DNA of 32,000 nt from Demequinaceae bacterium (GCA_965250005.1 OZ252279.1:1530001-1562000), one strand, 5' to 3'. Counted from the stretch's first letter, positions 1,883-30,355 are shown. Notes: generated by a model from the letters alone, not told the origin. Numbers and translations are program-made.

Positions 1883-1895
1883 GATGTGTCCTTTC

Positions 1896-3161
1896 TCAGG
1901 CCGGGGTGGATTCTTTGGACTTTGCCCGTGTGGGTTGCCGCTTGCCCTTCATGGACATGTGTGGAGACATAGGGATGTAGCGCCCTGGGAGCAACAGCGC
2001 CCAATACGCGAACCGGAAGGCGAGCTTGCCCACGTGGTTTAACCACGTCTCCTTGAGCAACTTCATGGGGCCGATGCCAGCAATGGGAAAGCTCCCAGGA
2101 AGGGGCTCGGTCTCGTAGTTGAAGTCGATGAGCATTCCCTTGCGGTCACCAGACTCGATGAAGCAGGTTGCGTGGCCGTCGAAACCTTCGGTCATAGCGC
2201 GCCCGTTGACGTGATCCACAAAGTTGTCGGGGAAAAGGTCAAGCTGGAAGTGCGCGACGGCCCCCGCCTTCGAGGTGGGGATGTTGTTGGCGTCGCCGAT
2301 CGCGAAGATGTTGTCGTGCTTGGTGGAGAGCAGAGTGTGCTTGTCGACTGGCACGTAGTTGAGGTCGTCGCCTAGTCCCGACTTGGCCAGAAAGTCCGCT
2401 CCCATGTTGAGCGGGATGGTGACAAGCAGGTCGAACGGAACCTCGCGTTCGTCGTACGAGACGAGCGATTTCCTGCCCTCGTCTATGCCCTCGATCATGT
2501 AGTCAGACTCGAGGGCGATTTTGCGATCGCCGAGCATGTCGCCGAGAGCGGCCGCGGCCACAGGCTTGGTAAATGCGCCGGGCAGCGGAGTCACATATGT
2601 GAGCTCGACCTGGCCGCGCATACCTCTCTTGGTGAAGTAGTCGTCCGCGAGGAACACAAACTCGAGCGGTGCGACAGGGCACTTGATCGGCATCTCGGTT
2701 ACGTGCACCACGACCCGGCCGCCCTTGAACCCGGCAAGCTTGTCGCGAAGGGCAACGGCGTCGTCGTACGTGTAGAAAGACTGGATGCTTTCGTGCCAGA
2801 GTTTCCCGTCCATGCCGGGAGTCTGGTCGGGGCGAGGACTCGTTCCAGTGGCAATCACTAGGTAGTCGTAGGCGAGAACATCGCCGTTGTCGAGCACCAC
2901 CTGGTTGCTTTCGGCCTGCACTAGGTCGACCGCGGCGTGGACCAGTTCGACACCTTTGGGGATGAAGCGCTTGGTTGCCTTCTTGAGCTGCTTCTCTTCA
3001 TATGTTCCGAATGGAAGGAAGAGGTACCCGGGCTGGTAATAGTGGGTGGCGCTGGGGTCAACAACTGTGATTGACCACTCGCTACGGGGCAGCTTCTTGC
3101 GCAACTTGTTGACGGCGATGGTGCCCGCTGTTCCTGCGCCGAGGACCACTAGATTCCTCAT
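1896..3161 (-). CDS. sqr: Sulfide:quinone oxidoreductase-like NAD(P)/FAD-dependent oxidoreductase
   Basis: Start set at ATG 3161 with an AAGGAG RBS. Rossmann motif 'NLVVLGAGTAGT' at the N-terminus, 'PIKCPVAPLEF' Cys motif and 'FAIGDA' second dinucleotide motif. First gene of an operon with the TusE-like and DsrE-like genes. The SQR subtype cannot be assigned by eye. Confidence 0.8.
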   Translation of the reverse strand: MRNLVVLGAGTAGTIAVNKLRKKLPRSEWSITVVDPSATHYYQPGYLFLPFGTYEEKQLKKATKRFIPKGVELVHAAVDLVQAESNQVVLDNGDVLAYDYLVIATGTSPRPDQTPGMDGKLWHESIQSFYTYDDAVALRDKLAGFKGGRVVVHVTEMPIKCPVAPLEFVFLADDYFTKRGMRGQVELTYVTPLPGAFTKPVAAAALGDMLGDRKIALESDYMIEGIDEGRKSLVSYDEREVPFDLLVTIPLNMGADFLAKSGLGDDLNYVPVDKHTLLSTKHDNIFAIGDANNIPTSKAGAVAHFQLDLFPDNFVDHVNGRAMTEGFDGHATCFIESGDRKGMLIDFNYETEPLPGSFPIAGIGPMKLLKETWLNHVGKLAFRFAYWALLLPGRYIPMSPHMSMKGKRQPTRAKSKESTPA

Positions 3162-18410: not shown

Positions 18411-18587
18411 AGAATTACCCCCGAATGTTCCGTCATGACCGGCATGTCCCAGCGTCTCATGTGTAAGGAGATATGCAGTTTGTGCTCATGAATGTTGGCA
18501 ATGAGGCCGATAAGTTGGGGTACGAGAGGTGTGTTTTCCGTTCACATCCGGTCGGTAGCGTGCCGACAGAGGCAAGAGAGAGGTCTC

Positions 18588-21500
18588 ATGCTCCAACGTT
18601 TGGGAGTTCGCGGAAAGATTCTTGCGGTTGTCGCCGTGCCGATTCTGGTGCTGGTGTTCGCGGCAGGCGCCGTCACCTTTTCTGCTGCCCGCCAACTGGA
18701 CGCTTCGCAGAACGTTGCGCAATTGTTGGGCGTCATTCGCCAGGCACACGACCTTGTCGACAACTTGCAGGCCGAACGTGACGCGGCTACCAACTACACC
18801 GGTATCTACCGCGAGACACTGGAGCAGCGTGAGACCGCGTGGTTGGGCACGGACCAGGCATTCTTAGACATCCTCCAGGCAGCGCTCGATGCGCCGGCTG
18901 CGGCGCAAGGAAGCGCGCAACAGGCGTCCTCGGAAGTCGCACAGCTCCTTCAGTTTCGGTTTGATGAGAATGGCGTTTTGGTCTCACGTGTGGGTGCCGA
19001 AACCGAGGTGACGGGCGGTATCTACCCGCTCCGCGCTGTCGACACGCAAGAGCGAGTTCAGGACGGCACCATCGCATCGAATTTCCCCACCTGGCCTTCG
19101 GTTGGCGAGGTGGAAGCGGTCGCCTCGAACTACGCGAGCCTCCGCATCGAAATCGCGGCGATTCTCGAGTCTCTCCCTGCCGGCACGGGCCTCGAGGACG
19201 CGATCGAGGTCCTCTTGTTCGCGACTGCGCTCGAAGCCACCTCCACTGATGCATTTCTTAAGGACTCACGGCTACTCGAGGAAGCGGTAGCGGGCACGAT
19301 TCTCGCGGTCAACCAGGCCGCACTCGTATTTGTGGTGCAAGAAGGCCGAATGAGTCCACGCGACGAGAACGCCAACGTGCTCGCCCTCACTGGTGCGGCC
19401 AGCAGCGCGCTCGATGGGATCGGGGAGATCCGCGCGACCCTCTTGGACCCTTCAACGAACTCGGGGAAGGTCGCTGGCTGGTATACCGCTGTGGTGGAGG
19501 ACTTGATTGATCTTTCGTATGAGGTAAGCACGATCACAGCCGATCGACAACTTTCTCTCATGCTGGTCGCGTACGCGGACTCGGACACCCTGATCGAGAG
19601 AATTCAAGTCGAGAAGTTTACTCTTGAAGGTATCATCCGACGCGGAGAGTTCGGCTTTGGCGAAGCGCAAGCGACCAACCGCCTCATAGTCCGAACGGAC
19701 CTCGCGCTGGTCACCGCGCAAGAGAGTGCCGCTACTGTAGAAGTGTTGCCGGCCGTCCCCAGTTTTGGCGCGTCGTTCGACCCTACGAGCACTGACGTCA
19801 AGTCGTTTGAGTTTGTGCGTAACCGCTTGTCAACGGGCCAGGACTCAATCGCCAAGATCGAGCGAGTCTCCAACTGGCCCTTGCGCGTCAGTCAAGAATT
19901 GGCGGTTTTGGCACCGCTCCGCGATGATGCATTCCGCAAAGGGCGCGCGCAGTCTGATGAAGCAACAGCAGCGACCCTCCTGCAAACGATCCTCACCTCG
20001 GTTATCGCCGCCGTCGTGGTTGTGGGCTCACTGTTCATCGCCCTCCTGATTTCTCGTCGAATAGTCGGACCGCTACGACGACTGACCACCACGGCTACCG
20101 CAGTGCGCCAGGAGTTGCCGCGTCTAGTCGAGCGCGTCGCGCTACCGGGCCAGACGGTTGACGTGTCGGAAGTGCAGATTCCGGTGGAGTCTGCGGACGA
20201 GATTGGCAGACTTGCCGAGGCGTTCAACGCAGTTAACGCCGCCACGCTTTCGATCGCCGGCGAGCAGGCTGCGCTGCGTGGATCGATCTCAGAAATGTTC
20301 GTCAACGTGGCTCGTCGCGACCAGGTGCTCCTGAACCGGCAGCTGGCCTCAATTGATGAGATGGAACGTACCCAGGACGACGCGGAAACGCTCACCCGGC
20401 TATTTGCGCTGGACCACCTTGCGACCCGGATGCGCCGAAACTCCGAGTCGCTGCTCGTGCTCGCGGGGATTGACACCGGCCGACGCATGCGTCGCGCCAT
20501 GCCGCTTTCGGACGTTATTCGCACCGCTTCTTCTGAGATCGAACTCTATGAGCGTATTCAACTCGAACTTGACGCCGACCCCGCCATGGTTGGTCACTCA
20601 TCGCTGACTGCTGCGCACCTCTTCGCGGAGTTGCTCGAAAACGCGACGGTCTTTTCTGACCCGGGAACGCCTGTTGTCGTCCGCACCATTGAGCGCGACG
20701 GAAACTTCATTGTCGAAGTTATCGACCGTGGCATCGGCATGGGAACCGAAGAGCTTCAGGAAGCAAATCAGCGCGTGCTCTCGACTGCAGCTTCGGAAAT
20801 CCTCGGTGCGCAACGGCTTGGGCTATTTGTGGTTGGGCGCATTGCGCGACGCATTGGCGCGCGCGTCGAGATCCAGAGTAAAGAAGGCGAAGGCACAACG
20901 ACCACTGTCATCATGCCGGTCAGCCTCTTCGATATCGACGCGGAAGTGGACACAAAGCGCACGTCCGAGAGCACAGTTGATGAGAACGTGCACGCTCCTG
21001 CAGCGCTTGTGGAGCACCGCCTCGACGATCAGGTCTTGGACGTTCTCGAAGAGTCCTCGCCGTACCAGGAGCCCCAAGAGACAGTTGAACCCGACCCAAT
21101 CGAGGTTGCACCGTTTGCGGACGTTGGCGTTGCCAACGCAGACGGAGGCGGGGGCGAACGGATTCCGGTAGAGGAAATCACCATCGACCAAATGCCTACT
21201 GAGGCCACCGTCACTACTCAGGATATCAACCATCTCATCGAGGCTGATGCCATTCTCGCGCCGACGAGTAGCGAGGTTGACCTCGCCTCCCTCACGGGTG
21301 GAGTCACGGAAACGGGCCTCCCCGCTCGTCGTCGTGGCGGGCCTGCGGATACCGAAGCACAGCCAGAAACCTCGAGCATTCTCGGACTCCCTGCGCGCCC
21401 GACCACCGGCCAGATGGACGAGATATCCTCGGGCGATGCACCCTCGGGATTCGTACCGCAAGTGAGCGCAAGCGAAGTCGCACCTCAGACAGCCGAACAG

Positions 21501-21686
21501 CGTGCATCGATGTTCCGCGGGTTCCAAGGCCGTCGAGAAGAGGGCGAAGAAGGCGAAGAGGTTATACTCGACCCAGATGCAGAGTCGCTCGGCCAGGCTG
21601 CGCGACGCGGAGCCGTCGCTCCCGATTCGATTCCTGCGCTTGAGGAAGAAGACTCGGCGAGCATCGAACGAGGGACGCATGACTGA
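18588..21686 (+). CDS. cvnA: Conservon CvnA-type membrane sensor kinase-like protein with a long acidic C-terminal tail
   Basis: Start at ATG 18588 (AGAGAGAGG upstream). TM1 'ILAVVAVPILVLVFAAGAV', a large extracytoplasmic region, TM2 'VIAAVVVVGSLFIALLI' and a HAMP-like 'RRIVGPLRRL...LAEAFN'. Family signature 'LDHLATRMRRNSESLLVL'. ATPase boxes 'ELLENA', 'DRGIGM' and 'LGLFVV'. About 250 aa of acidic tail ending with 'GLPARRR' and 'RASMFRGFQGRRE'. Confidence 0.85.
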   Translation: MLQRLGVRGKILAVVAVPILVLVFAAGAVTFSAARQLDASQNVAQLLGVIRQAHDLVDNLQAERDAATNYTGIYRETLEQRETAWLGTDQAFLDILQAALDAPAAAQGSAQQASSEVAQLLQFRFDENGVLVSRVGAETEVTGGIYPLRAVDTQERVQDGTIASNFPTWPSVGEVEAVASNYASLRIEIAAILESLPAGTGLEDAIEVLLFATALEATSTDAFLKDSRLLEEAVAGTILAVNQAALVFVVQEGRMSPRDENANVLALTGAASSALDGIGEIRATLLDPSTNSGKVAGWYTAVVEDLIDLSYEVSTITADRQLSLMLVAYADSDTLIERIQVEKFTLEGIIRRGEFGFGEAQATNRLIVRTDLALVTAQESAATVEVLPAVPSFGASFDPTSTDVKSFEFVRNRLSTGQDSIAKIERVSNWPLRVSQELAVLAPLRDDAFRKGRAQSDEATAATLLQTILTSVIAAVVVVGSLFIALLISRRIVGPLRRLTTTATAVRQELPRLVERVALPGQTVDVSEVQIPVESADEIGRLAEAFNAVNAATLSIAGEQAALRGSISEMFVNVARRDQVLLNRQLASIDEMERTQDDAETLTRLFALDHLATRMRRNSESLLVLAGIDTGRRMRRAMPLSDVIRTASSEIELYERIQLELDADPAMVGHSSLTAAHLFAELLENATVFSDPGTPVVVRTIERDGNFIVEVIDRGIGMGTEELQEANQRVLSTAASEILGAQRLGLFVVGRIARRIGARVEIQSKEGEGTTTTVIMPVSLFDIDAEVDTKRTSESTVDENVHAPAALVEHRLDDQVLDVLEESSPYQEPQETVEPDPIEVAPFADVGVANADGGGGERIPVEEITIDQMPTEATVTTQDINHLIEADAILAPTSSEVDLASLTGGVTETGLPARRRGGPADTEAQPETSSILGLPARPTTGQMDEISSGDAPSGFVPQVSASEVAPQTAEQRASMFRGFQGRREEGEEGEEVILDPDAESLGQAARRGAVAPDSIPALEEEDSASIERGTHD

Positions 21687-23034
21687 AGACTTCCGGGCCC
21701 ACCAGGACCCCGCCATTAGTGCCGGGTATCAGCACGAAGAACTGGCGGGGCTTGACGACGAGGAGTCGCGGCCGGATGGCTCTGTCGAGGATCTGGCGGT
21801 ACCGGGTTTTGCGCCTGATGACGACAACAACGCGGCGCTAAGTGCGTCGAACGTCATTGATGATGCTCCGCACAAAGCGAAGCGGGACAATGCCCGCCCA
21901 ATCCTTCAAGGTGAGGCAGTTTCACTAACCACCGAAACACATGGGCAGGGGGCGCCTGGAGGCACCCCGAGCATGGATGCGTTACTGGCGGATGTGTTGC
22001 CGAGCAAAGATCCCAAGGCTCGCAGAAGCATCTTCGGTCGGCGTAAAGAGTCGGTTTCCGATCTCGAGGTTTCCGGAAGTCAAGTAGTTGACTTCCCGAG
22101 TCTTGGCGGGCTTGACGCACCAGCGTCGCCCGCCGCAAGCGCCCCGTTCGACCTCCCACCGCCTGCTCCCGAGGCTTTCCTCGACGCGACTTCGGCCCAA
22201 GACGGATTTGGCGCTGCCGCTGCCGCCGCCTTCGGCGCGTTGCCTGAGCCACCCGCAGACGTTGACGAGTACGACTTTGATGAGGATGCACTAGCCTTAG
22301 GTGGTTTCGCGCCTGTGGTGGACGCGTATGGCGCGGCTCCTGAACTTGACGCCGCACCCGCCGTGGACGCGTTCGCCGCTCCGGCCGAAGGTTTCGCTAC
22401 GCCTGACCCGTTTGCGGTTGTCCCCGAGTTTTCACTTGAGCCAGATTCAGAACCAGAAGCGACCGGTGGGTTCGTTGCACCCGACGGACTTGCGCCGGAG
22501 CTTAGTTTTGGCGACAACACTGGAACTCCATCCGAACTCGAAGCGCAGGCGCCTGATTTCCCGCCACCGGGTATGCCTGCCCCCGCTTTCGGAACGGCAC
22601 CCGCGCAATTCGTGGATCCCACCGATTGGGAGTCGGCTGGCCAAAGTGCGCTTCAGAGCGCAGTAGTCGAGCCCGATTACATCGGATACAGTCCCGAAGC
22701 CTTTTCTGAACTTCCACCGCCGCCAGTAATGATCGAGGATCCACAGGACGTTGAAGCAGAAGTCACTACTTCGGCGTTCTCTGAACTGAGTTCGCTCGCC
22801 GGCACTCGTCCGAAGGTAGAGCGCACTCGTGTGGGCCTGACTAAGCGAGCCGCGGTCGAGGTCCAGGAACGCAAGCCACTCGATGACGGCTCGATTACCC
22901 CGGCAGCGCGCGACGCGGACGCGACACGCAGCCGATTCTCAAGTTTCTATTCAGGCACCGCACGCGCCAAAGTCGACGCGGCGGAGTTTGAGCAGAAAGT
23001 CCATGGCGGCTCGTCAGGCGAGGCAATGCCATGA
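21679..23034 (+). CDS. Acidic, Pro/Ala-rich, probably disordered protein inserted in the conservon (hypothetical)
   Basis: ATG 21679 overlaps the cvnA stop by 8 nt (ATGACTGA). 451 aa with no hydrophobic core segments. Repeated aromatic-acidic mini-motifs ('DAFAAPAEGFATPDPFAVVPEF'). The C-terminus 'VGLTKRAAV...ATRSRFSSFYSGTARAK' echoes the CvnA tail motifs. Ends 54 nt before the cvnB start. Confidence 0.65.
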   Translation: MTEDFRAHQDPAISAGYQHEELAGLDDEESRPDGSVEDLAVPGFAPDDDNNAALSASNVIDDAPHKAKRDNARPILQGEAVSLTTETHGQGAPGGTPSMDALLADVLPSKDPKARRSIFGRRKESVSDLEVSGSQVVDFPSLGGLDAPASPAASAPFDLPPPAPEAFLDATSAQDGFGAAAAAAFGALPEPPADVDEYDFDEDALALGGFAPVVDAYGAAPELDAAPAVDAFAAPAEGFATPDPFAVVPEFSLEPDSEPEATGGFVAPDGLAPELSFGDNTGTPSELEAQAPDFPPPGMPAPAFGTAPAQFVDPTDWESAGQSALQSAVVEPDYIGYSPEAFSELPPPPVMIEDPQDVEAEVTTSAFSELSSLAGTRPKVERTRVGLTKRAAVEVQERKPLDDGSITPAARDADATRSRFSSFYSGTARAKVDAAEFEQKVHGGSSGEAMP

Positions 23035-23088
23035 CCACTATCCGGAGTGAAGCCCGCTCCTCTCAAGGAGCCTAACTATGGAGGACCA

Positions 23089-23535
23089 GTGACAGCGATC
23101 AGCACCGAAGCCACCAACTTTGGTTGGCTTCTGGACAATTTTGTCCAGACCGTCCCTGGCACGCGCCACACCCTGGTCGTCTCTGCCGACGGCCTGCTCA
23201 TGGCGATGTCAAAGAACCTCGACCGCACAGGGGGCGACACCCTCGCAGCCGTCGTCTCCGGCATGTCGAGCTTGACGCGCGGAGCCGCGCGCCAACTCAA
23301 TGCCGGCGAAGTGCGTCAATCGATCATCGAGATGGACGAACTGTTCCTCTTCTTGATGAGCGTGTCCAACGGCTCCGTGCTGGCGGTGGCTGCTGACTCG
23401 ACGTGTGACGTCGGGCTCGTGGGCTACGAAATGACGCTGCTCGTGACGCGAACTGAAAGCGCGCTCACCCCGCAGCTCATTACTGAAATGCGCCAGTACC
23501 TGCCGACCGACGGCAAGACCAGAGACAACTCGTAG
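23089..23535 (+). CDS. cvnB: Roadblock/LC7-domain protein (conservon CvnB)
   Basis: 'FGWLLDNFVQTVPGTRHTLVVSADGLLMA' is the Roadblock/MglB-like signature. Start set at GTG 23089, preceded by GGAGGA; GTG 23047 (ORF track) lacks an RBS. Confidence 0.8.
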   Translation: MTAISTEATNFGWLLDNFVQTVPGTRHTLVVSADGLLMAMSKNLDRTGGDTLAAVVSGMSSLTRGAARQLNAGEVRQSIIEMDELFLFLMSVSNGSVLAVAADSTCDVGLVGYEMTLLVTRTESALTPQLITEMRQYLPTDGKTRDNS

Positions 23536-23544
23536 GAGCACGAC

Positions 23545-23946
23545 ATGAGCGAAGATGAATTTGCGCCGTCGGAACTCGACAACGACGATGACGCCTACAC
23601 GGTCCGCCCATACGCGGTCACGGGCGGGCGCGTCGTAGGAGATGCCGACGGCCTCGCGGTTGAAGCCTTGGTCGAAACGATGGATCCCGACCGAAGTCTG
23701 AAGGGGCTGACCCCTGAGAAGAAGAAGATTCTGCAGCTTGCCGCAGAGGACTTCATATCCGTCGCTGAGCTTTCGGCGCACTGCAAGCTTCCGCTTGGAG
23801 TGGTTCGCGTGCTAGTTGCGGAGTTGGCAGAACATGAGTACCTAAGAATCCACACCAACGGTCCCGCCGGTCAGTATGACGACGAGACTGGCGGTATCAC
23901 CCTAAGTCTGTTGGAGAGTGTTCTCGATGGCATCGCAGCCCTCTAG
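23545..23946 (+). CDS. cvnC: DUF742-domain protein (conservon CvnC)
   Basis: 'VRPYAVTGGR' motif and a C-terminal wHTH-like 'ISVAELSAHCKLPLGVVRVLVAELAEHEYL'. TAGGAG RBS. Confidence 0.8.
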   Translation: MSEDEFAPSELDNDDDAYTVRPYAVTGGRVVGDADGLAVEALVETMDPDRSLKGLTPEKKKILQLAAEDFISVAELSAHCKLPLGVVRVLVAELAEHEYLRIHTNGPAGQYDDETGGITLSLLESVLDGIAAL

Positions 23947-24523
23947 CGCCACGGTTGACGACAAGGCGCATTTTGCCCCCACGGTAGTCAAGATTGTGAT
24001 CGCGGGTGGATTTGCCGTAGGCAAGACCACCTTTATCGGTTCCATCTCTGACATCGATCCGCTCAACACTGAAGCGGCCATGACCGAGCATTCGGTTGGA
24101 GTCGATGATGCTGGCGGTATTTCCGACCGCAAGACACACACGACGGTAGCGATGGACTTCGGTCGCATCGCCCTTCCAGGCTCCTTGTGGCTGTACCTGT
24201 TCGGGACCCCCGGCCAGGATCGCTTCCTGTTCATGTGGGACGACCTAGTGCGGGGCGCCATCGGCGCTCTTGTTCTGGTCGATACCGAGCGGCTTGATCA
24301 GTGCTTCCCGGCCGTGGACTACTTTGAGGGTCGGGGAATCCCGTTCATCGTTGCGGTCAATTGCTTCGACGGCGTTGCGCGTCACCAACTGGACGACGTT
24401 CGCGAGGCCCTTGGCCTCAACGAAAAGATTCCGGTGATGTACACCGATGCACGCGAGCGGGCAGCCACCAAGCAGGCCCTCATCGCCGTGGTCCAGCTCG
24501 CTATGGAACGCTTGAAGGAGTAG
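23927..24523 (+). CDS. cvnD: Small Ras-like GTPase (conservon CvnD)
   Basis: P-loop 'GGFAVGKTT', switch II 'FGTPGQDRF' and 'VAVNCFD' in place of NKxD. ATG 23927 is preceded by GGAGAG and overlaps cvnC by 20 nt. GTG 23918 is an alternative start. Confidence 0.85.
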   Translation: MASQPSSATVDDKAHFAPTVVKIVIAGGFAVGKTTFIGSISDIDPLNTEAAMTEHSVGVDDAGGISDRKTHTTVAMDFGRIALPGSLWLYLFGTPGQDRFLFMWDDLVRGAIGALVLVDTERLDQCFPAVDYFEGRGIPFIVAVNCFDGVARHQLDDVREALGLNEKIPVMYTDARERAATKQALIAVVQLAMERLKE

Positions 24524-24541: not shown

Positions 24542-24573
24542 CCCCGGTTCACGCCCAGGTGCGTGACCCGGGG
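24542..24573 (+). terminator. Stem-loop after cvnD
   Basis: CCCCGGTTCACGC / GCGTGACCCGGGG: a 13-bp stem with one mismatch and a 6-nt loop, 19 nt after the cvnD stop. No U-tract. Confidence 0.45.
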
Positions 24574-24585
24574 TGAACGCGCGGC

Positions 24586-24591
24586 TACGCT
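24586..24591 (+). promoter_or_regulatory. -10 hexamer TACGCT placed for a leaderless PIN-protein mRNA
   Basis: TACGCT-GGTTCGC-GTG: a TANNNT hexamer 7 nt upstream of GTG 24599, with no SD. Confidence 0.35.
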
Positions 24592-24598
24592 GGTTCGC

Positions 24599-26416
24599 GT
24601 GATCTACATTGACGGCTCTGCACTCTGCCGCTTCCTTCCGGGAGTGCGTCACTCGGACGAGTGGGCGGTGTGGGCAGCTGAGCACGCGAGCAACCTTGTG
24701 ACGACTCAGCTGGGCTTCACCGAATTGCGACAGGCCGCCGAGTTGTACCCGCGCGCTTGGCTTGATGAAGTTCAAGAGATTGTAGAGTCGGTGCGCTCGA
24801 GTGTGTCCGCGGTTCGGTTTAGCGACGACACGGTTGAGCTTTCGTCACATGCCACCGCGGTTCTCAAGCCGTTTGCGGCGCTTCACATCGGTGCGGCGGT
24901 GTCGAACGATGACATTAACGCAATCGCGACTTACGATCCCACGTTGGCTCACGTCGGTGAGATTTATGAATTGAAGGTGATCTCTCCCGGGCTTGAGGAC
25001 AACTGGCACCATCGGTTCTCCGGTCCACCCGAGGGCTGGAAGGCCGTCGAGCTCGGCGCGCCATATGATCCGGGTGCCGAGTTTGAATTGGCTCCCGAAG
25101 TTGCCGTTGTCGCCGAATCCGAATCCGAGGTCCCTGAAGCCCTTGTGGTCACCGGCGAGGCCGTAGATGGCGAAACGCCTGACAAGCCGGAGTTGGAGGT
25201 AGTCGAGAGGCCCGATGGCGTTCCCTTGACTGGAAGTGACCGCGAGACCGTTGTTGTCGGCTCTGGGGGGTCAGAGAGCCTGGTGGACGAGGACTCAGGG
25301 CTGGAGCCACCGGAGGCCGATCCGGCCGCTGAGACCGAACTCGACCGTGCTCTCCGGGAGGCGGAGGCAGCAGCCGCTGCTGTCGGCGATTCGAGTACCG
25401 ACGACGTTGGTGATCACGGCAACGAGTTTGAACTCGGTGACACTGAAGCGCCGGAATTCGAGTCCCTCGCTTCTGGCGAAGAGGAGATCGCGACGCCGGC
25501 GGCCGACGCAGGATCGAACGAATCCGCAGCGGATGACACCAGCAGCGACCCGGGCGTGAGCGAAGAGGTCGGCAGCCACGGACTGGCTGAGGTCAAAGTT
25601 GAGCCGAGCGCGCCTGCTGTGAGCGGTCCGGAGTGGGAGGTGGGCAAGGCCAGGAGCCGTGAAGAGGTCATAGCGAGCATTGGCGTTTATGCACCTCGTG
25701 TGCAGGCGTGGGGTGAGGACGCGCAGGCGGGGCCGTCAGTTCGGCATGTCGAGGCAAGCGAGCCGGTTGAAGGGGTCACAGCCTTCGCTGGTGGCCCAGG
25801 CGAAACCGACGAGGTCGAAGCCCCTGCTGCGCCGCCGGCACCGTACGCGATTGATTCTCAGGATCAAGAGATTTTCTCCTCGGGCGCGCTCACACCTGGC
25901 TTCGTGGAGCCGCCTGACGAGGCCCCCGCGGCCGCGGTCAGTCCTGGGTACGACGAATCGGTGCCCGCACTCGAGCCGACTAGCGCCGAGCAGGCCTCGA
26001 GGCCTCCAGCGATGCCCATTCACTGGAACTTGGACCTTGACGAACCGGAGAACTACCATCCGCCGACGTTCGAGACCGATGACGCGTCGCCGCTACCGGG
26101 TGCCACGCGCGAGCCAACTCCGACCCGCTACTCAGATTCCGGTCCGATTCTGGGCGAGTCGATTATCGTGCCCGGGCTGGAACCAGAGGCTATTGACCCG
26201 GCCCTTCCCGTCGCTCTGGACGCAGGCCTGACGTCACTGCCGGAGGCCCCGAAACCCAAGAAGCGTGGAGGACGTCTTGGGCGCAAGGAGAAAAAGCCCA
26301 AGGCGTCGAAGCGGAGCGGAAAAAGGCGAGCCGTCGCTGATCCGGTACAGACCGACGCGAGTACAGAGACCGGAGGCTGGGACCTCGACGACGTGGTTGA
26401 CTTGGGCAAGGGTTAA
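24599..26416 (+). CDS. PIN-domain protein fused to a ~470-aa acidic low-complexity tail ending in a Lys/Arg cluster
   Basis: From GTG 24599 the N-terminus reads '(M)IYIDGSAL...TTQLGFTEL...LKPFAALHIGAAV...ATYDPTLA', the VapC/PIN layout. ORF-track start 24563 lies inside the preceding hairpin. The remainder is E/D/P/A-rich and ends 'KPKKRGGRLGRKEKKPKASKRSGKRR...WDLDDVVDLGKG'. Confidence 0.7.
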   Translation: MIYIDGSALCRFLPGVRHSDEWAVWAAEHASNLVTTQLGFTELRQAAELYPRAWLDEVQEIVESVRSSVSAVRFSDDTVELSSHATAVLKPFAALHIGAAVSNDDINAIATYDPTLAHVGEIYELKVISPGLEDNWHHRFSGPPEGWKAVELGAPYDPGAEFELAPEVAVVAESESEVPEALVVTGEAVDGETPDKPELEVVERPDGVPLTGSDRETVVVGSGGSESLVDEDSGLEPPEADPAAETELDRALREAEAAAAAVGDSSTDDVGDHGNEFELGDTEAPEFESLASGEEEIATPAADAGSNESAADDTSSDPGVSEEVGSHGLAEVKVEPSAPAVSGPEWEVGKARSREEVIASIGVYAPRVQAWGEDAQAGPSVRHVEASEPVEGVTAFAGGPGETDEVEAPAAPPAPYAIDSQDQEIFSSGALTPGFVEPPDEAPAAAVSPGYDESVPALEPTSAEQASRPPAMPIHWNLDLDEPENYHPPTFETDDASPLPGATREPTPTRYSDSGPILGESIIVPGLEPEAIDPALPVALDAGLTSLPEAPKPKKRGGRLGRKEKKPKASKRSGKRRAVADPVQTDASTETGGWDLDDVVDLGKG

Positions 26417-26444
26417 CGCGTCGACTTGCACGATGGCTTGACCA

Positions 26445-26532
26445 GGAGAGTTGACCGAGCGGCCGAAGGTGACAGTCTTGAAAACTGTTGAGGCGTAACC
26501 CGTCTCCGTGGGTTCGAATCCCACACTCTCCG
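26445..26532 (+). tRNA. tRNA-Ser (anticodon TGA)
   Basis: Hand-folded. Acceptor GGAGAGT/ACTCTCC, anticodon stem ACAGT/ACTGT with loop CT-TGA-AA, long variable arm, T-arm GTGGG-TTCGAAT-CCCAC, discriminator G. 88 nt; CCA not encoded. Confidence 0.9.
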
Positions 26533-26550
26533 CAATGAGCGCCTAGCGCG

Positions 26551-26931
26551 CTAGCAGCAGCAAGTGGTGTTGCAGTCGCAGCGCACGTCGAGAATTGCGG
26601 CAATTTCGCGAACCCGCGGGATCACCAGTCGATACTGGACTCGCGCCCCTTCCCGTCGCGGAACGACGAGCCCCGCTTTTTCCAGGCGCTTGAGGTGGTG
26701 GCTCACCGTCGGTTCGGTCAGTGTCACCAACGGCGCGATTTTGCGAGTTGTGAGTTCACGATCAGCGCGACCGGCCAGGATCGAGACGATAGACAGGCGT
26801 GCGGGGTCTGAGAGCGCCTTGAGCGAGGCGGCGACACGTTCCGACTCTTCCGCGCTGAAGCGTTCCTGTTCGCCGAGAGGTGGGCAGCACAATTCGAAGT
26901 CGACTGGCTTGACCTCTACCTCGATTCGCAT
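26551..26931 (-). CDS. ArsR/SmtB-family transcriptional regulator with Cys-rich N- and C-terminal extensions
   Basis: Start at ATG 26931 (GGGAGGA RBS, 8-nt spacer). wHTH core 'LKALSDPARLSIVSIL...TEPTVSHHLKRLEKAGLV'. All 7 Cys lie outside the core: 'ELCCPPL' near the N-terminus and 'RCDCNTTCCC' at the C-terminus. Confidence 0.85.
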   Translation of the reverse strand: MRIEVEVKPVDFELCCPPLGEQERFSAEESERVAASLKALSDPARLSIVSILAGRADRELTTRKIAPLVTLTEPTVSHHLKRLEKAGLVVPRREGARVQYRLVIPRVREIAAILDVRCDCNTTCCC

Positions 26932-26962
26932 GGGCTCGATCCTCCCACACGCTTTGACAGAT

Positions 26963-26993
26963 GTCGAATGTACGGGCATCCTGGTAATTCGAC
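26963..26993. promoter_or_regulatory. Inverted repeat GTCGAAT-N17-ATTCGAC in the ArsR / micro-ORF divergent intergenic region
   Basis: Perfect 7-bp arms (26963-26969 and 26987-26993). A TTGACA hexamer sits at 26954-26959 just upstream on the plus strand. Candidate operator; function inferred only. Confidence 0.3.
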
Positions 26994-27014
26994 GGATATC
27001 GAAAGGAGGCGTTC

Positions 27015-27071
27015 ATGACATTCACCGACATTGGAGATGACGAAGGTTGCTGCTCCGGCTGCTGCTGCTAG
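27015..27071 (+). CDS. 18-codon cysteine-rich micro-ORF, MTFTDIGDDEGCCSGCCC
   Basis: GAAAGGAGG, 5-nt spacer, ATG, 18 codons with 5 Cys in the last 7, then TAG. A strong intrinsic terminator starts 6 nt after the stop. Divergent from the ArsR gene, 83 bp between start codons. Too short for the ORF track. Confidence 0.5.
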   Translation: MTFTDIGDDEGCCSGCCC

Positions 27072-27076
27072 GCGCG

Positions 27077-27121
27077 AGGAGGACGCCAACACAGCGCGCG
27101 GTGTTGGCGTCCTCCTTCTTT
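27077..27121 (+). terminator. Intrinsic terminator after the micro-ORF
   Basis: 16-bp perfect stem AGGAGGACGCCAACAC / GTGTTGGCGTCCTCCT with an 8-nt loop, followed by TCTTT. Confidence 0.8.
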
Positions 27122-27133
27122 GCCCGGTAGCCT
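27104..27133 (+). promoter_or_regulatory. Candidate promoter of tRNA-Ser(GCT): TTGGCG-N18-TAGCCT
   Basis: -35-like TTGGCG (27104-27109, inside the terminator's 3' arm) and -10 TAGCCT (27128-27133), 15 nt upstream of the mature tRNA 5' end. Confidence 0.35.
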
Positions 27134-27148
27134 GATGTCCCGTTGCCG

Positions 27149-27243
27149 GGAGACGTCGCATAGTCCGGCCTAGTGCGCGGTCCTGCTAAGACCGTGAGGG
27201 GTTTATAGCTCCTCCGTGGGTTCAAATCCCACCGTCTCCGCCA
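27149..27243 (+). tRNA. tRNA-Ser (anticodon GCT), CCA encoded
   Basis: Hand-folded. Acceptor GGAGACG/CGTCTCC, anticodon stem CGGTC/GACCG with loop CT-GCT-AA, long variable arm, T-arm GTGGG-TTCAAAT-CCCAC, discriminator G, then CCA. Confidence 0.9.
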
Positions 27244-27251
27244 CACGCAAG

Positions 27252-27286
27252 TGCTGCACTCCTGGGTCACTCCCAGGAGTGCAGCA
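27252..27286 (+). other. Perfect 15-bp stem-loop between tRNA-Ser and tRNA-Arg (terminator or processing element)
   Basis: TGCTGCACTCCTGGG-tcact-CCCAGGAGTGCAGCA. No U-tract. It is followed by TATACT (27290-27295), a -10-like hexamer 21 nt upstream of tRNA-Arg. Confidence 0.5.
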
Positions 27287-27316
27287 GGCTATACTCGTGA
27301 CTCGGCCAGTGGCCGC

Positions 27317-27389
27317 GCGCCCGTAGCTCAACGGATAGAGCATCTGATTACGGATCAGAAGGTTGGGGGTTCGAATCCCTTCGGGCGCA
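27317..27389 (+). tRNA. tRNA-Arg (anticodon ACG)
   Basis: Hand-folded. Acceptor GCGCCCG/CGGGCGC, D-arm GCTC-AACGGATA-GAGC, anticodon stem TCTGA/TCAGA with loop TT-ACG-GA, T-arm GGGGG-TTCGAAT-CCCTT (two G-U pairs), discriminator A. 73 nt. Confidence 0.9.
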
Positions 27390-27397
27390 CATGCCGG

Positions 27398-27425
27398 GGT
27401 CCTGCCGTTGGGCGGGACCTTTTCT
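27398..27425 (+). terminator. Intrinsic terminator after tRNA-Arg, shared with the convergent gene end
   Basis: GGTCCTGCC-gttg-GGCGGGACC (one G-U pair) followed by TTTTCT. It overlaps the minus-strand stop at 27424-27426. Confidence 0.7.
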
Positions 27426-28542
27426 AGTCTTCGGACACGCCGGTCCGTTCTGGAATCAAGACGGGCTCGCCGTCTTCTCCAAGATCGATTCGTCTGGACT
27501 CGCCGCGGCTGTCGACCACGATGGATGCGGCCACTGCACGGCCAGCGGGACCGAGCCTGATCGTCAGCGTGCCGCTGTCGACGTTTCGTAGCGACTCCGT
27601 GATGCGAGCCGTGAGGAGCTTCATTGCCGTTCGAGTAGGAAGGCCTCCGCCACGGTCATCGAGCAGAGTTACCTCGACGCCGCGGGCGCGGGCCTCTGCG
27701 GTGGCAGCGACGATTTCAGGAATCTGCAGCCCGCGCGCCCGCACACTATCGCGCAATGTCGCCTCGGCTAGGAGGTAGTCAATTCGGTCGTCGGCGTGAG
27801 TGGTCCGCGACTTGGCAATGCGACTCAAGAGGGGCGTCGCGAACTCGGCAAGCTCTTCTACCCGCTGCCGCCGAATCTCATGTTCCGCGTCTGCGCTAGC
27901 CGTCGCTGCCGCGAGTTCGATGGATCGAATGTTCAAATCGTTGATTCGACTGGACGTACGCGTGAGCGCCTTGGTGAACAACGTGGCCACCAGCAGGATC
28001 CCGGCGTGTGTCTGAAGGGCGAGCAACGCCCCCGAGAGACTGCGCCCCACCGAGACGGACCACGCGACATGGACCAGTGCGAGACCGACGAAGCCGAGCC
28101 ACGCGACCAAAATCCGTCCTCGAAGCGCAACAAAGAAGAGTAGCCATGTGTTCGAGCCAATGTGCCAGCTTTCGCGGCCGATATCGCCGACGTCAGGGAG
28201 TTGCCAAGAGATCAGCGCCGTGCTTACGAGAACGGCGGCGAGTAGGCCGAGAGTCCATCGTCCCGGGAGCGGATCTTTGTGAGGGAGCACGATGAGGACA
28301 GCTGCCCCATTGACCACCAACATGGCGACGATGCTCGGGTACGGTGACTTCACGGCGTCGAGCGTCGAGACGGTGAAGGTTGCATTGACGAGCATGTACA
28401 GCGTGAGAACCATGCGAGAACCGGACTTGCCGATGCCCAGCAGTGTGCTGACATCCGTGCTTCGAGCGTCATGCGCGACGGTGCGTGAATTGGCGCGCGG
28501 CGTCGTGGATTCCGCTAACTTCAGATTTCCTGGAGTGCTCAT
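27424..28542 (-). CDS. Polytopic membrane protein with a cytoplasmic C-terminal domain; third gene of the two-component operon (hypothetical)
   Basis: ATG 28542 overlaps the kinase stop (ATGA). About 6 hydrophobic segments, then a charged helical stretch 'AEHEIRRQRVEELAEF' and an alpha/beta-like C-terminus. I did not recognise a phosphoacceptor His box or G1/G2 ATP-binding boxes. Confidence 0.65.
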   Translation of the reverse strand: MSTPGNLKLAESTTPRANSRTVAHDARSTDVSTLLGIGKSGSRMVLTLYMLVNATFTVSTLDAVKSPYPSIVAMLVVNGAAVLIVLPHKDPLPGRWTLGLLAAVLVSTALISWQLPDVGDIGRESWHIGSNTWLLFFVALRGRILVAWLGFVGLALVHVAWSVSVGRSLSGALLALQTHAGILLVATLFTKALTRTSSRINDLNIRSIELAAATASADAEHEIRRQRVEELAEFATPLLSRIAKSRTTHADDRIDYLLAEATLRDSVRARGLQIPEIVAATAEARARGVEVTLLDDRGGGLPTRTAMKLLTARITESLRNVDSGTLTIRLGPAGRAVAASIVVDSRGESRRIDLGEDGEPVLIPERTGVSED

Positions 28543-29717
28543 GAGTTCCTCATCCACGTGAGAGTGACGGTTGTTCCGCGTCCTGGCCTCGAGTCGAGCG
28601 CCGCGCTCCCGCCTGTTAGCAGTTCCATCCGTTCGAATATGCTGACGCGGATACCGAGTCTGCGCTCGGCGACGGCCTTGGGATTGAAGCCGCGGCCAGT
28701 GTCCTGGATGGTGGCGCGAAGCGTGTTGTCGGTCAGGTTGACTGTGACGACCCGGTGAACGAAGCCGTCACCATCGCCTCCGTGGATGAGGCTATTTCGC
28801 ACCGCCTCTGCGATTGCCTCACTGAACGCCTCGACTACATCGGCCGGGATCGAGTTTGTTCCTACGGATGAGTGCCAGAACGCGACCTGCGAGGCGTGGT
28901 CAGTTACAGCGGCCCGCAGTGCGGTAATGGTCTCGCTCGGCGTGTAGTCGGGCACATCGTCCGTCCGAACGGTCAGCGTGGCGACGCTTGCCAACGCGGA
29001 AACTGCCTGCTCGGCAACCCGCGGACTGTGGTCTTCGCGACCGGCGACCAGAAGCACGGACATGATGTCGTCGTGGACGATCGCGTTTATTCGTGACTGC
29101 TCCCGCTGGCGGGTGCGCTTGCTCGCCTCGATCGACGCGTGAGCCCGGGCCCGAGCCGCCACCAAGTCCTGTTGTTCGGCTGCGCCCACCAGCGCCAGCG
29201 CAACGCCGATGAGAATCCCCGAGAATAATGTGGCTCCCACCCCGTTAAGCACAGCGGCCTTCACCTCGTGATCGGTAGCTCCGATTTCTACAACCGCCAC
29301 GAGGGGACCCTGGATGATTGCGTAGAGCCAAACTAGGCGATGCCTCCAAACGACTGCCGCAAGTGTGCCGTGCACCGCAGTCACGCCTTGGAGCCACGGA
29401 TCGTCCATGGCCACTTCAACGGTGAGGAAGGGAACCCACAGCAACTGCACCGAAACGAAGCCAATCACGATGGCCGCCGCGAACCGGTTGAGGATGGTCT
29501 CCGGGAGCGTCCACGCGAGCACGATTAGGGAGGCTGGAAGCACGATTCCAAATGCCACAGCGATCAACCCAAATACGGCGTCGAGGTTGTTGAGCTGAGA
29601 CAGGATCTTGCCGGCTAGGATCCCACCGAACACGATTGCGCCGATACCGACGGCCATGTACAACGTCCGCTGGACGCGTTCCCTGGCAGCATGCACGTCT
29701 GCCGCCGGCGCGCTCAC
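28539..29717 (-). CDS. Membrane sensor histidine kinase (HisKA_3 / NarL-partner type)
   Basis: About 5-6 TM segments. H-box 'RINAIVHDDIMSVL', N-box 'EAVRNSLIHG', G1 'DTGRGF', G2 'LGIRVS', and the end 'GRGTTVTLTW'. GTG start overlaps the regulator stop (GTGA). Confidence 0.85.
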   Translation of the reverse strand: MSAPAADVHAARERVQRTLYMAVGIGAIVFGGILAGKILSQLNNLDAVFGLIAVAFGIVLPASLIVLAWTLPETILNRFAAAIVIGFVSVQLLWVPFLTVEVAMDDPWLQGVTAVHGTLAAVVWRHRLVWLYAIIQGPLVAVVEIGATDHEVKAAVLNGVGATLFSGILIGVALALVGAAEQQDLVAARARAHASIEASKRTRQREQSRINAIVHDDIMSVLLVAGREDHSPRVAEQAVSALASVATLTVRTDDVPDYTPSETITALRAAVTDHASQVAFWHSSVGTNSIPADVVEAFSEAIAEAVRNSLIHGGDGDGFVHRVVTVNLTDNTLRATIQDTGRGFNPKAVAERRLGIRVSIFERMELLTGGSAALDSRPGRGTTVTLTWMRNS

Positions 29718-30355
29718 TGGGGGCCCTCCAACAAACCGTCTTCTATCGCTCGCACGTAGAGGTCAACGCGTGAATGCGCGGGACGCCCCGCCTCCGCATA
29801 CTTGCGGCGGATGCGTGTGACGTAGTCGGCAATGGTTTCTCGTGAGAGTCCCATGCGCTGCGCGACGGAGGTGGCCGTCTCGCCCGATGCGTATAGGCCG
29901 AGTACCTCCTGCTCGCGCGGGCTCAGTTTGGCGTCCTCGAGATCTGATGCGGCGTCAATTGCCGCGGCCCAATCGGCGCCAAAGACCTCACCGCCATTTG
30001 CGGCAGTGCGGACGGCATCGAGCAATGTCTCAGGCGCTGCGGACTTGCGGATAAGTCCAAGTGCGCCCGAACGTGCGGCCTGTTGGATTAGCCGGCGATC
30101 CTCCGCGCCGGTGTAAACGAGCACTTCCGCGCCGAGGGCGTGAATTGCCGCCACGTTCTCCTCGGGCGAGGACCCGTCGTTCAGGCGCAAATCGAGGACT
30201 ACGAGGTCGAGTTTGTTTGCGAACGACGAGAGTTCCTCGACGGTCTCTGCCAATCTCGCCAAATCCAGGTCTGGCGCGGTGGCAATGAGGTCCTGAAACC
30301 CGCGGGAGATCAGCGCGTGATCCTCTACCAGCGCGATCTTCTTGTGTTCGCCCAT
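29714..30355 (-). CDS. LuxR/NarL-family response regulator
   Basis: Receiver 'IALVEDH...LVVLDLRLNDG' and C-terminal HTH 'LSPREQEVLGLYASGETATSVAQRMGLSRETIADYVTRIRRKY'. GAGGA RBS. Confidence 0.9.
   Translation of the reverse strand: MGEHKKIALVEDHALISRGFQDLIATAPDLDLARLAETVEELSSFANKLDLVVLDLRLNDGSSPEENVAAIHALGAEVLVYTGAEDRRLIQQAARSGALGLIRKSAAPETLLDAVRTAANGGEVFGADWAAAIDAASDLEDAKLSPREQEVLGLYASGETATSVAQRMGLSRETIADYVTRIRRKYAEAGRPAHSRVDLYVRAIEDGLLEGPQ

Follow-up and report, generated by a model that had tools for sequence, protein, structure and literature searches.

A conserved, unannotated micro-gene divergent from an ArsR-family repressor encodes a predicted cysteine-pair peptide, most likely a small binder of arsenite or other thiol-seeking metals

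In a 32,000-nucleotide stretch of DNA from a Demequinaceae bacterium (GCA_965250005.1 OZ252279.1:1530001-1562000), referred to here as the window, a very short open reading frame lies at positions 27015-27071 (+). Translation of 27000-27071 gives RKEAF-MTFTDIGDDEGCCSGCCC followed by a stop, with the ATG at 27015-27017 and the TAG at 27069-27071. The ORF has 18 sense codons, with five Cys in the last seven residues, and its product would be TFTDIGDDEGCCSGCCC (+/- Met). A Shine-Dalgarno (SD) sequence, GAAAGGAGG, which includes AAGGAGG, lies at 27001-27009, and 5 nt (27010-27014) separate it from the ATG. These features agree with a preliminary description of the region as a complete miniature gene, although that description placed the start of the feature at 27015, which is the ATG, so the SD lies just outside its range. 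Downstream there is an intrinsic-terminator-type hairpin at 27077-27116 (+), with a GC-rich, 16-bp perfect stem (arms 27077-27092 and 27101-27116) and an 8-nt loop. It starts 5 nt after the stop, not 6 as previously described, and the tail, which had been called T-rich, is only TCTTTG, which is weakly T-rich. A generic promoter and terminator scan found nothing in 26300-27600. However, its criteria (at least 5 T in the tail and at least 9 of 12 promoter matches) are stricter than actinobacterial signals, and we used folding and comparison instead.

On the opposite strand, 26551-26931 (-) encodes a 126-aa ArsR/SmtB-family protein (MRIEV...CCC), which scores 46.9 bits on Pfam HTH_5 (PF01022, cutoff 22) and 73.2 bits on NCBIfam NF033788 (cutoff 55). 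It has an N-terminal Cys15-Cys16 (LCCPPLG) and a C-terminal Cys cluster (RCDCNTTCCC), and it lacks the alpha-3 CVC motif. It scores below the cutoff of its best equivalog model, that of the Rv2640c family (NF041413, 81.5 bits against 155). Its own SD, GGGAGGA on the minus strand at 26940-26946, lies 8 nt before its ATG, and a protein in the collection that we searched starts at this same ATG.

The spacer between the two start codons is 83 bp. It contains a consensus -35 hexamer, TTGACA, at 26954-26959 (+), and a -10-like hexamer, CATCCT, 17 nt later at 26977-26982 (+), which is inferred from sequence and comparison. The -10 region is bracketed by a putative ArsR operator, the inverted repeat GTCGAAT-N17-ATTCGAC at 26963-26993, which has no mismatches and is unique in the window. 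A third operator-like half-site, ATATCGAAA, is fused to the Shine-Dalgarno at 26996-27009 (+). The whole module lies between tRNA-Ser(TGA) at 26445-26533 and tRNA-Ser(GCT) at 27149-27243, which is followed by tRNA-Arg(ACG) at 27317-27390. The tRNA-Ser(GCT) gene has a separate inferred promoter at 27104-27133 (+), consisting of TTGGCG, 18 nt and TAGCCT, with the -35 inside the 3' arm of the hairpin. This marks the end of the micro-ORF unit. Rfam, searched with permissive thresholds, gave only the three tRNAs. Minus-strand ORFs of 81-82 aa that overlap the region were rejected because they overlap the tRNA gene and the arsR start.

To determine whether the ORF is conserved, we compared the surroundings of related regulators. 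The regulator has few close relatives; twelve proteins are 58-100% identical and the next are at 48% or lower. The close clade shares an invariant N-terminal LCCPPLG and a C-terminal LDVxCxC. DNA was retrieved for these relatives and for 80 more distant homologues from species-representative genomes, and individual loci are denoted below by L and a number. All 11 distinct close loci examined, with ArsR proteins 58-100% identical, carry an SD-led micro-ORF at the same distance from the same promoter. These are MTFTDIGDDEGCCSGCCC in the window, MTFT[ND]IGDDGGCCSGGGCC in L081 and L082, MTFTRFDGGCCGGCC in L001, MGSIGPGDGCCGGCGCGCC in L002, MDGGGCCGTGCC in L003 and L085, MDGGGCCGGGCC in L089 (these last two peptides are summarized by MDGGGCCG[TG]GCC), MDRCSSPGGCCGGGCCGG in L004, MDAFHIDDGCCGGGCCGCC in L087 and MTSMCDCTGGCCGGGCCGGGCCS in L088. 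The ORFs are 12-23 codons long and end in G-C-C-G(2-3)-C-C. Interestingly, the N-terminal halves diverge beyond recognition, while the start, the frame, the Gly-spaced Cys pairs and a stop 0-2 codons after the last pair are all kept. More distant Actinomycetota have the same kind of gene in the same slot, 12-25 codons long and with two to four CC pairs: MTFCCEAEAVEALETCCPTETSCC in Nanopelagicales, MSCCEDCCDNCQEDCC and MDCCDDCSDCCCEGCC in Nocardioidaceae, and MACQSDCKDCCGEECCGDTCC in a Propionibacteriales metagenome-assembled genome. Every locus that carries the ORF is a metagenome-assembled genome or a metagenome contig.

The variation between these loci is of the kind expected for coding sequence. 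Within four alignable groups, 22 of 37 variable sites fall at third codon positions (binomial p = 0.001). L003 and L085 differ by three synonymous changes and no replacements, length differences are in frame, and only one Cys is lost, in L056. Loss of the frame or of the Cys codons beside orthologous regulators had been proposed in the preliminary description as grounds for refutation, and the ORF passes this test. We also ran an unbiased scan of all the retrieved DNA plus the window, 493 kb on both strands, for SD-led ORFs of 8-45 codons with at least 4 Cys and at least 2 CC pairs. This returned 23 hits, of which 21 are free-standing micro-ORFs beside ArsR homologues and two are the C-terminal ends of an ArsR and a CadI protein. 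There were no others, including elsewhere in the window. A metagenome scan with the back-translated N-terminus MTFT[DN]IGDD gave two hits, both chance matches inside unrelated long genes. As the preliminary description anticipated, gene callers miss the ORF, and in one contig a spurious overlapping frame was called instead. We conclude that this is a genuine protein-coding micro-gene family, although that the peptide is made remains an inference from sequence comparison.

The control region is also conserved. The upstream alignment of the close clade has an invariant TTTGACA, TCGAA/TCTAA half-sites on both sides of the -10-like hexamer, in which the A at position 2 and the T at position 6 are kept, and a nearly invariant string, ATCGAAAGGAGG, at the Shine-Dalgarno. 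This promoter/operator, TTGACA-N4-TC[GT]AA, was searched for as the compound motif TTGACANNNNTCKAA, which occurs exactly once in 42 of 90 loci, always just upstream of the arsR start. The gene it drives varies between loci. In addition to the micro-ORF, it may be ArsD (L014; 106.6 bits for ArsD against a cutoff of 90), ArsI/CadI glyoxalase-type enzymes (L029, L037, L046, L059, L062, L069, L073, L074, L077 and L080; 197 bits for full-length ArsI/CadI against a cutoff of 116), FAD-dependent oxidoreductases with weak ArsO similarity (L017, L018, L053 and L061), or arsR itself, where the motif lies on the arsR strand (L031, L034, L043, L063 and L068). The micro-ORF therefore occupies the effector slot of an ars-type regulon, which supports the earlier suggestion that this is the position of an ArsR-regulated effector. 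That ArsR binds these repeats and represses the promoter is inferred from this architecture and from the general behaviour of the ArsR/SmtB family.

A strong hairpin follows the stop in the 10 full-length close loci (-22 to -46 kcal/mol), with different sequences and a compensatory change in L081; L082 is cut by its contig end. In the window and its relatives the unit is monocistronic. The hairpin is followed by tRNA genes with their own conserved promoter, by an independent PadR unit with its own palindromic operator, or by a convergent gene. The tRNA promoter arrangement, TTGGCG/TTGGCA-18 nt-TAGTCT, is seen in L002, L004, L087, L088 and L089.

Several chemistries had been listed in the preliminary description, namely Cu(I), Cd, Zn and As(III) binding and persulfide or redox chemistry. 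Of these, the evidence favours As(III)/Sb(III) over Zn/Cu or persulfide. The closest solved structures to the regulator are both As(III)-responsive repressors, 6J0E from Corynebacterium glutamicum (E = 1.5e-11) and 6J05 from Acidithiobacillus ferrooxidans (E = 3.9e-11). The C-terminal Cys cluster aligns on the AfArsR NCCHGTRDC segment, which holds the Cys95/96/102 site, and Cys15-Cys16 appears to correspond to the N-terminal pair used by CgArsR. In three loci the micro-ORF lies inside ars-type operons: ArsO-like, micro-ORF, MIP channel and LMW-PTP arsenate-reductase-like in L025; ArsI/CadI and micro-ORF in L028; and permease, ArsE-type thioredoxin (103 bits, cutoff 62), micro-ORF and MFS in L064. 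In L030 and L042 the micro-ORF and hairpin precede an arsenate-reductase-like gene. However, no ars pump, reductase or ArsD lies in the window, so the arsenic link for this clade rests on sister loci and on regulator similarity, and Cd, Pb, Hg or Cu cannot be excluded.

The peptide motif also matches the extreme C-terminus of the ten tailed ArsD proteins in the retrieved loci (L023, L024, L027, L033, L034, L036, L038, L043, L044 and L079), which end in GGCCGG[TS]GCC, GGCCGGGCC or a near variant, each directly before the stop. The ArsD family model stops before this tail. In R773 ArsD the tail carries the pairs Cys112-113 and Cys119-120, which were implicated in metalloid sensing (PMC4562236). 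CC-containing tails also end most of the ArsI/CadI and ArsO-like proteins driven by this promoter, 12 of 14, for example VCCGAAGTSACC and GGCCS. The vicinal-cysteine tail therefore behaves as a modular appendage of these loci, and the micro-ORF is its free-standing form. That said, the CC-G-G-CC motif is low in complexity, and the resemblance to the ArsD tail could be convergence. None of the 90 loci has both ArsD and a micro-ORF.

Our preferred explanation, which we hold with moderate confidence, is a two-gene metal(loid) module. In this model the ArsR-family repressor binds the inverted repeat that brackets the -10 region of a strong TTGACA promoter, and the third half-site abutting the ribosome-binding site, and so keeps the micro-ORF, and probably arsR itself, silent. 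When As(III), or possibly Sb(III) or another thiol-seeking metal, binds the cysteines of the repressor (Cys15/Cys16 plus the C-terminal cluster), the repressor leaves the DNA. A short monocistronic mRNA is then made, translated from a near-ideal Shine-Dalgarno and terminated at the hairpin. The product would be an acidic 18-residue peptide whose C-terminal CC-x2-CCC supplies the three thiolates that As(III) needs, and which would act as an inducible intracellular buffer or as a hand-off carrier for the metalloid. One peptide binds at most one or two As(III), so stoichiometric buffering would need very high expression. The anatomy of the gene, its conservation as a coding sequence, its fixed link to this ArsR clade and promoter/operator, and its occurrence inside ars-type operons are supported directly by the comparisons above, whereas repression by ArsR, the inducer, translation and metal binding are inferred, there being no transcript, ribosome-profiling or peptide evidence for any member.

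The strongest alternative, although we consider it unlikely, is that the architecture is as above but the peptide is a mini-metallothionein for Cd(II), Pb(II), Hg(II), Cu(I) or Zn(II), and the regulator is a CmtR/SmtB-like metal sensor. The window and its closest relatives have no ars genes beside the module, the best NCBIfam equivalog is the Rv2640c family, whose neighbour in other genomes is the ArsI/CadI heavy-metal enzyme, and CmtR, CadC and SmtB also appear among the solved relatives. Divergent ArsR/SmtB-metallothionein pairs are established (smtB-smtA; PMC4353254 and PMC8790569), and acidic Cys-rich versions such as MSCCEDCCDNCQEDCC look phytochelatin-like. However, the two best solved matches are As(III) sensors, with Cys positions that appear to correspond to the As(III) sites of CgArsR (Cys15/16) and AfArsR (C-terminal), and the sister loci carry ArsD, arsenate-reductase-like, ArsE-type thioredoxin and MIP genes. 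The peptide copies the ArsD tail, has no His, and its paired Cys fit three-coordinate metalloids.

Two further possibilities appear improbable. The ORF could be a regulatory leader with a functionless peptide, in which ribosomes stall at the Cys codons when cysteine or charged tRNA-Cys is scarce, for example when arsenic drains thiols, and so change the formation of the adjacent hairpin and control downstream expression. Runs of Cys codons do lie at the 3' end of a short ORF, 5 nt from a stable hairpin, and polycysteine short ORFs act as cysteine-responsive attenuators in mycobacteria (10.1101/834739). However, there is nothing to attenuate in the window clade or in Nanopelagicales, the ORF is linked to ArsR and ars genes and not to cysteine metabolism, and it also occurs as an internal or last gene of operons (L025, L028 and L064). 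Gly spacing and the placement of the stop 0-2 codons after the last CC are conserved, which stalling does not need, and no alternative antiterminator pairing is conserved. For loci where the ORF heads an operon (L030 and L042) a regulatory contribution cannot be excluded. Equally doubtful is that the peptide is a regulatory partner of ArsR rather than a sink, capturing As(III) and passing it to, or competing for it with, the Cys tail of the repressor, thus tuning the induction threshold as a feedback loop. The pairing of this ArsR clade with the micro-ORF is strict, the two often have no other cargo, ArsR itself carries a similar Cys tail, and the C-terminal Cys pairs of ArsD were linked to a regulatory role (PMC4562236). 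But there is no direct evidence for this, and in other loci the micro-ORF travels with enzymes and transporters inside operons, which fits a general carrier or buffer better. A RiPP precursor was rejected because there are no maturation genes nearby, the neighbours being tRNAs, ArsR, a PIN-like protein and histidine-kinase-like genes. Finally, a chance ORF or purely RNA-level element is very unlikely: the ORF is very short, lies beside a promoter/operator that is itself conserved and matches no known protein family, but variation is biased to third positions, length changes are in frame, the Cys-pair C-terminus, SD and stop are kept across orders while N-terminal sequences are unrelated, the 493-kb scan gave no background hits, and Rfam finds nothing in the region beyond the tRNAs.

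Arsenic-resistance loci are among the best-studied bacterial detoxification systems. A 2025 paper states that no gene for intracellular sequestration has been found within the ars operon (PMC12093948). A conserved, ArsR-controlled micro-gene for a vicinal-dithiol peptide would add such a component. It would also show that the Cys-pair tails seen on ArsD, ArsI/CadI, ArsO-like and ArsR proteins are a portable functional module, and would give a minimal natural As(III)-binding tag of 12-18 residues, with a matched repressor and operator, for biosensing and bioremediation. It is a clear case of a functional gene that lies below every annotation length threshold, and its presence in streamlined freshwater Nanopelagicales suggests ecological relevance. 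In the literature that we searched there was no description of ArsR-linked Cys-pair micro-ORFs, although peptides this short could not be searched for among protein database entries. A more far-reaching hypothesis, which we regard as about as likely as not, is that a widespread family of ribosomally made 12-25-residue polythiol peptides has been missed by all gene callers. These 'gene-encoded phytochelatins' would be free-standing ArsD-type tails and the missing intracellular sequestration or carrier arm of actinobacterial arsenic resistance. In lineages such as Nanopelagicales and the Demequinaceae-like clade of the window, ArsR plus the peptide would be a complete, self-contained two-gene metalloid response, and the peptides would be the smallest gene-encoded metal(loid)-binding products known.

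The module can be compared with several known systems. The polycysteine short ORFs of mycobacteria (10.1101/834739) are likewise unannotated short ORFs in Actinomycetota with consecutive Cys codons at the 3' end, next to stable RNA structure. However, they are leaderless, head operons of cysteine metabolism, and act by unmasking the SD of the next gene. The ORF described here has a conserved SD 5 nt upstream, with the -35 and -10 placed for a 5' UTR of about 25-30 nt, and it is ArsR-linked and monocistronic, or else internal to ars operons. Phytochelatins and small fungal metallothioneins are probably comparable as short acidic polythiol peptides that bind As(III), Cd or Cu, and variants such as MSCCEDCCDNCQEDCC resemble (Glu-Cys)n. 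Phytochelatins, though, appear to be made enzymatically from glutathione and not on ribosomes, the fungal metallothioneins seem to have about 25 residues with CxC motifs, and neither is likely to be ArsR-controlled.

In chemistry the peptide resembles the C-terminal tail of the arsenic metallochaperone ArsD, with which it shares the motif G-C-C-G-G-x-G-C-C followed by the stop, paired vicinal cysteines of the form CC-x(3-5)-CC at the very end of the chain, an ars context and ArsR control, the last of these inferred here. In ArsD the tail is appended to a 97-position thioredoxin-like domain carrying the Cys12/13/18 transfer site (NF033727), a model to which the peptides have no hit and a domain that an 18-aa product cannot hold. 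Here the tail is a separate gene with its own SD and, in this window, its own promoter and terminator; for so short a motif, homology and convergence cannot be told apart. In architecture and logic the module works like the cyanobacterial smtB-smtA and AzuR-NmtA loci, where an ArsR/SmtB-family repressor is transcribed divergently from a small Cys-rich metal-binding polypeptide, the operator lies in the shared control region, and derepression by the bound metal is the proposed logic (PMC4353254, PMC8790569). SmtA-type proteins are about 55 aa, have a zinc-finger-like fold with Cys9His2 clusters and match Pfam Metallothio_Pro. The peptides here are 12-25 aa, have no His, consist of vicinal CC pairs and sit in an arsenic-type context, and neither this peptide (padded to 23 aa) nor five relatives gave a Pfam or NCBIfam hit. 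The module is therefore not a member of that metallothionein family, its product being three to four times shorter.

The hairpin that follows the micro-ORF appears to have a second role. Its 3′ arm contains TTGGCG, and exactly 18 nucleotides later comes TAGCCT (TAGTCT in relatives), about 15 nucleotides before the tRNA-Ser(GCT) gene; together these elements span positions 27104-27133 of the window. The arrangement is also found in L002, L004, L087, L088 and L089, five of the loci that host relatives of the ArsR regulator. The terminator therefore doubles as the -35 of a conserved, inferred tRNA promoter, which explains why this arm of the hairpin is sequence-conserved. In L001, L003 and L085, the tRNA genes are replaced as the downstream neighbour by a PadR-family regulator, which follows the micro-ORF unit about 130-160 nucleotides downstream of the micro-ORF stop. 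This regulator is preceded by a near-perfect palindrome, e.g. TATACCCGGTATATATACTGGGTATA in L001, and in L085 it is followed by an ABC transporter (ABC_tran, FtsX).

The window hosts a number of further genes. A protein of about 620-670 amino acids, encoded at 24563-26416 (+) in the window, has only a weak PIN-domain match at its N-terminus and no NCBIfam family; it is syntenic with the tRNA-Ser/ArsR/micro-ORF block in several relatives (L001-L003, L088 and L089). Positions 18492-24523 of the window hold what looks like a conservon-like cluster, consisting of a NIT/HAMP sensor histidine kinase, an unassigned 510-aa ORF, a Roadblock/LC7 protein and an ATP_bind_1 GTPase-like protein, although this appears to be unrelated to the micro-ORF. 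On the other side, at 27424-28557 (-) and 28539-29717 (-), a 377-aa protein with no family match is paired with a HATPase_c protein. The syntenic pair in L089 (positions 1-2066) is annotated as HATPase_c plus DUF8320. In the window, a LuxR-type response regulator follows at 29714-30355.

The micro-ORF locus of L088 is a convenient illustration of how such loci come to be mis-annotated. Here the automated gene call, at 1895-2092 (-), is a 65-aa ORF in a different frame, which overlaps the real 23-codon micro-ORF. In the Nanopelagicales loci (L005-L009 and L056), these streamlined freshwater bacteria keep an ArsR plus a 24-25-codon micro-ORF with three CC pairs (MTFCCEAEAVEALETCCPTETSCC) as a stand-alone pair, flanked by unrelated genes. 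One genome (L056) has replaced one Cys with Asp.

Interestingly, cysteine pairs are not confined to the micro-ORF. The ArsI/CadI-type and ArsO-like enzymes that are driven by the same operator nearly always end in CC-containing tails, e.g. VCCGAAGTSACC, VCCGSGVGDDLSKSCC and GGCCS, each immediately before the stop. This is seen at the C-termini of the first divergent gene in L017, L018, L037, L059, L061, L062, L069, L073, L074, L077, L080, L025 and L028. It is a modular cysteine-pair appendage that is shared with ArsD and ArsR, and to our knowledge it has not been discussed as a general feature.

The ArsR of the window is encoded at 26551-26931 (-). It scores below the cutoff of the Rv2640c family. 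It combines an N-terminal Cys15-Cys16 that is probably like that of CgArsR with a C-terminal Cys cluster like that of AfArsR, and it lacks the classical alpha-3 CVC, which may represent a hybrid or new sensing-site arrangement.
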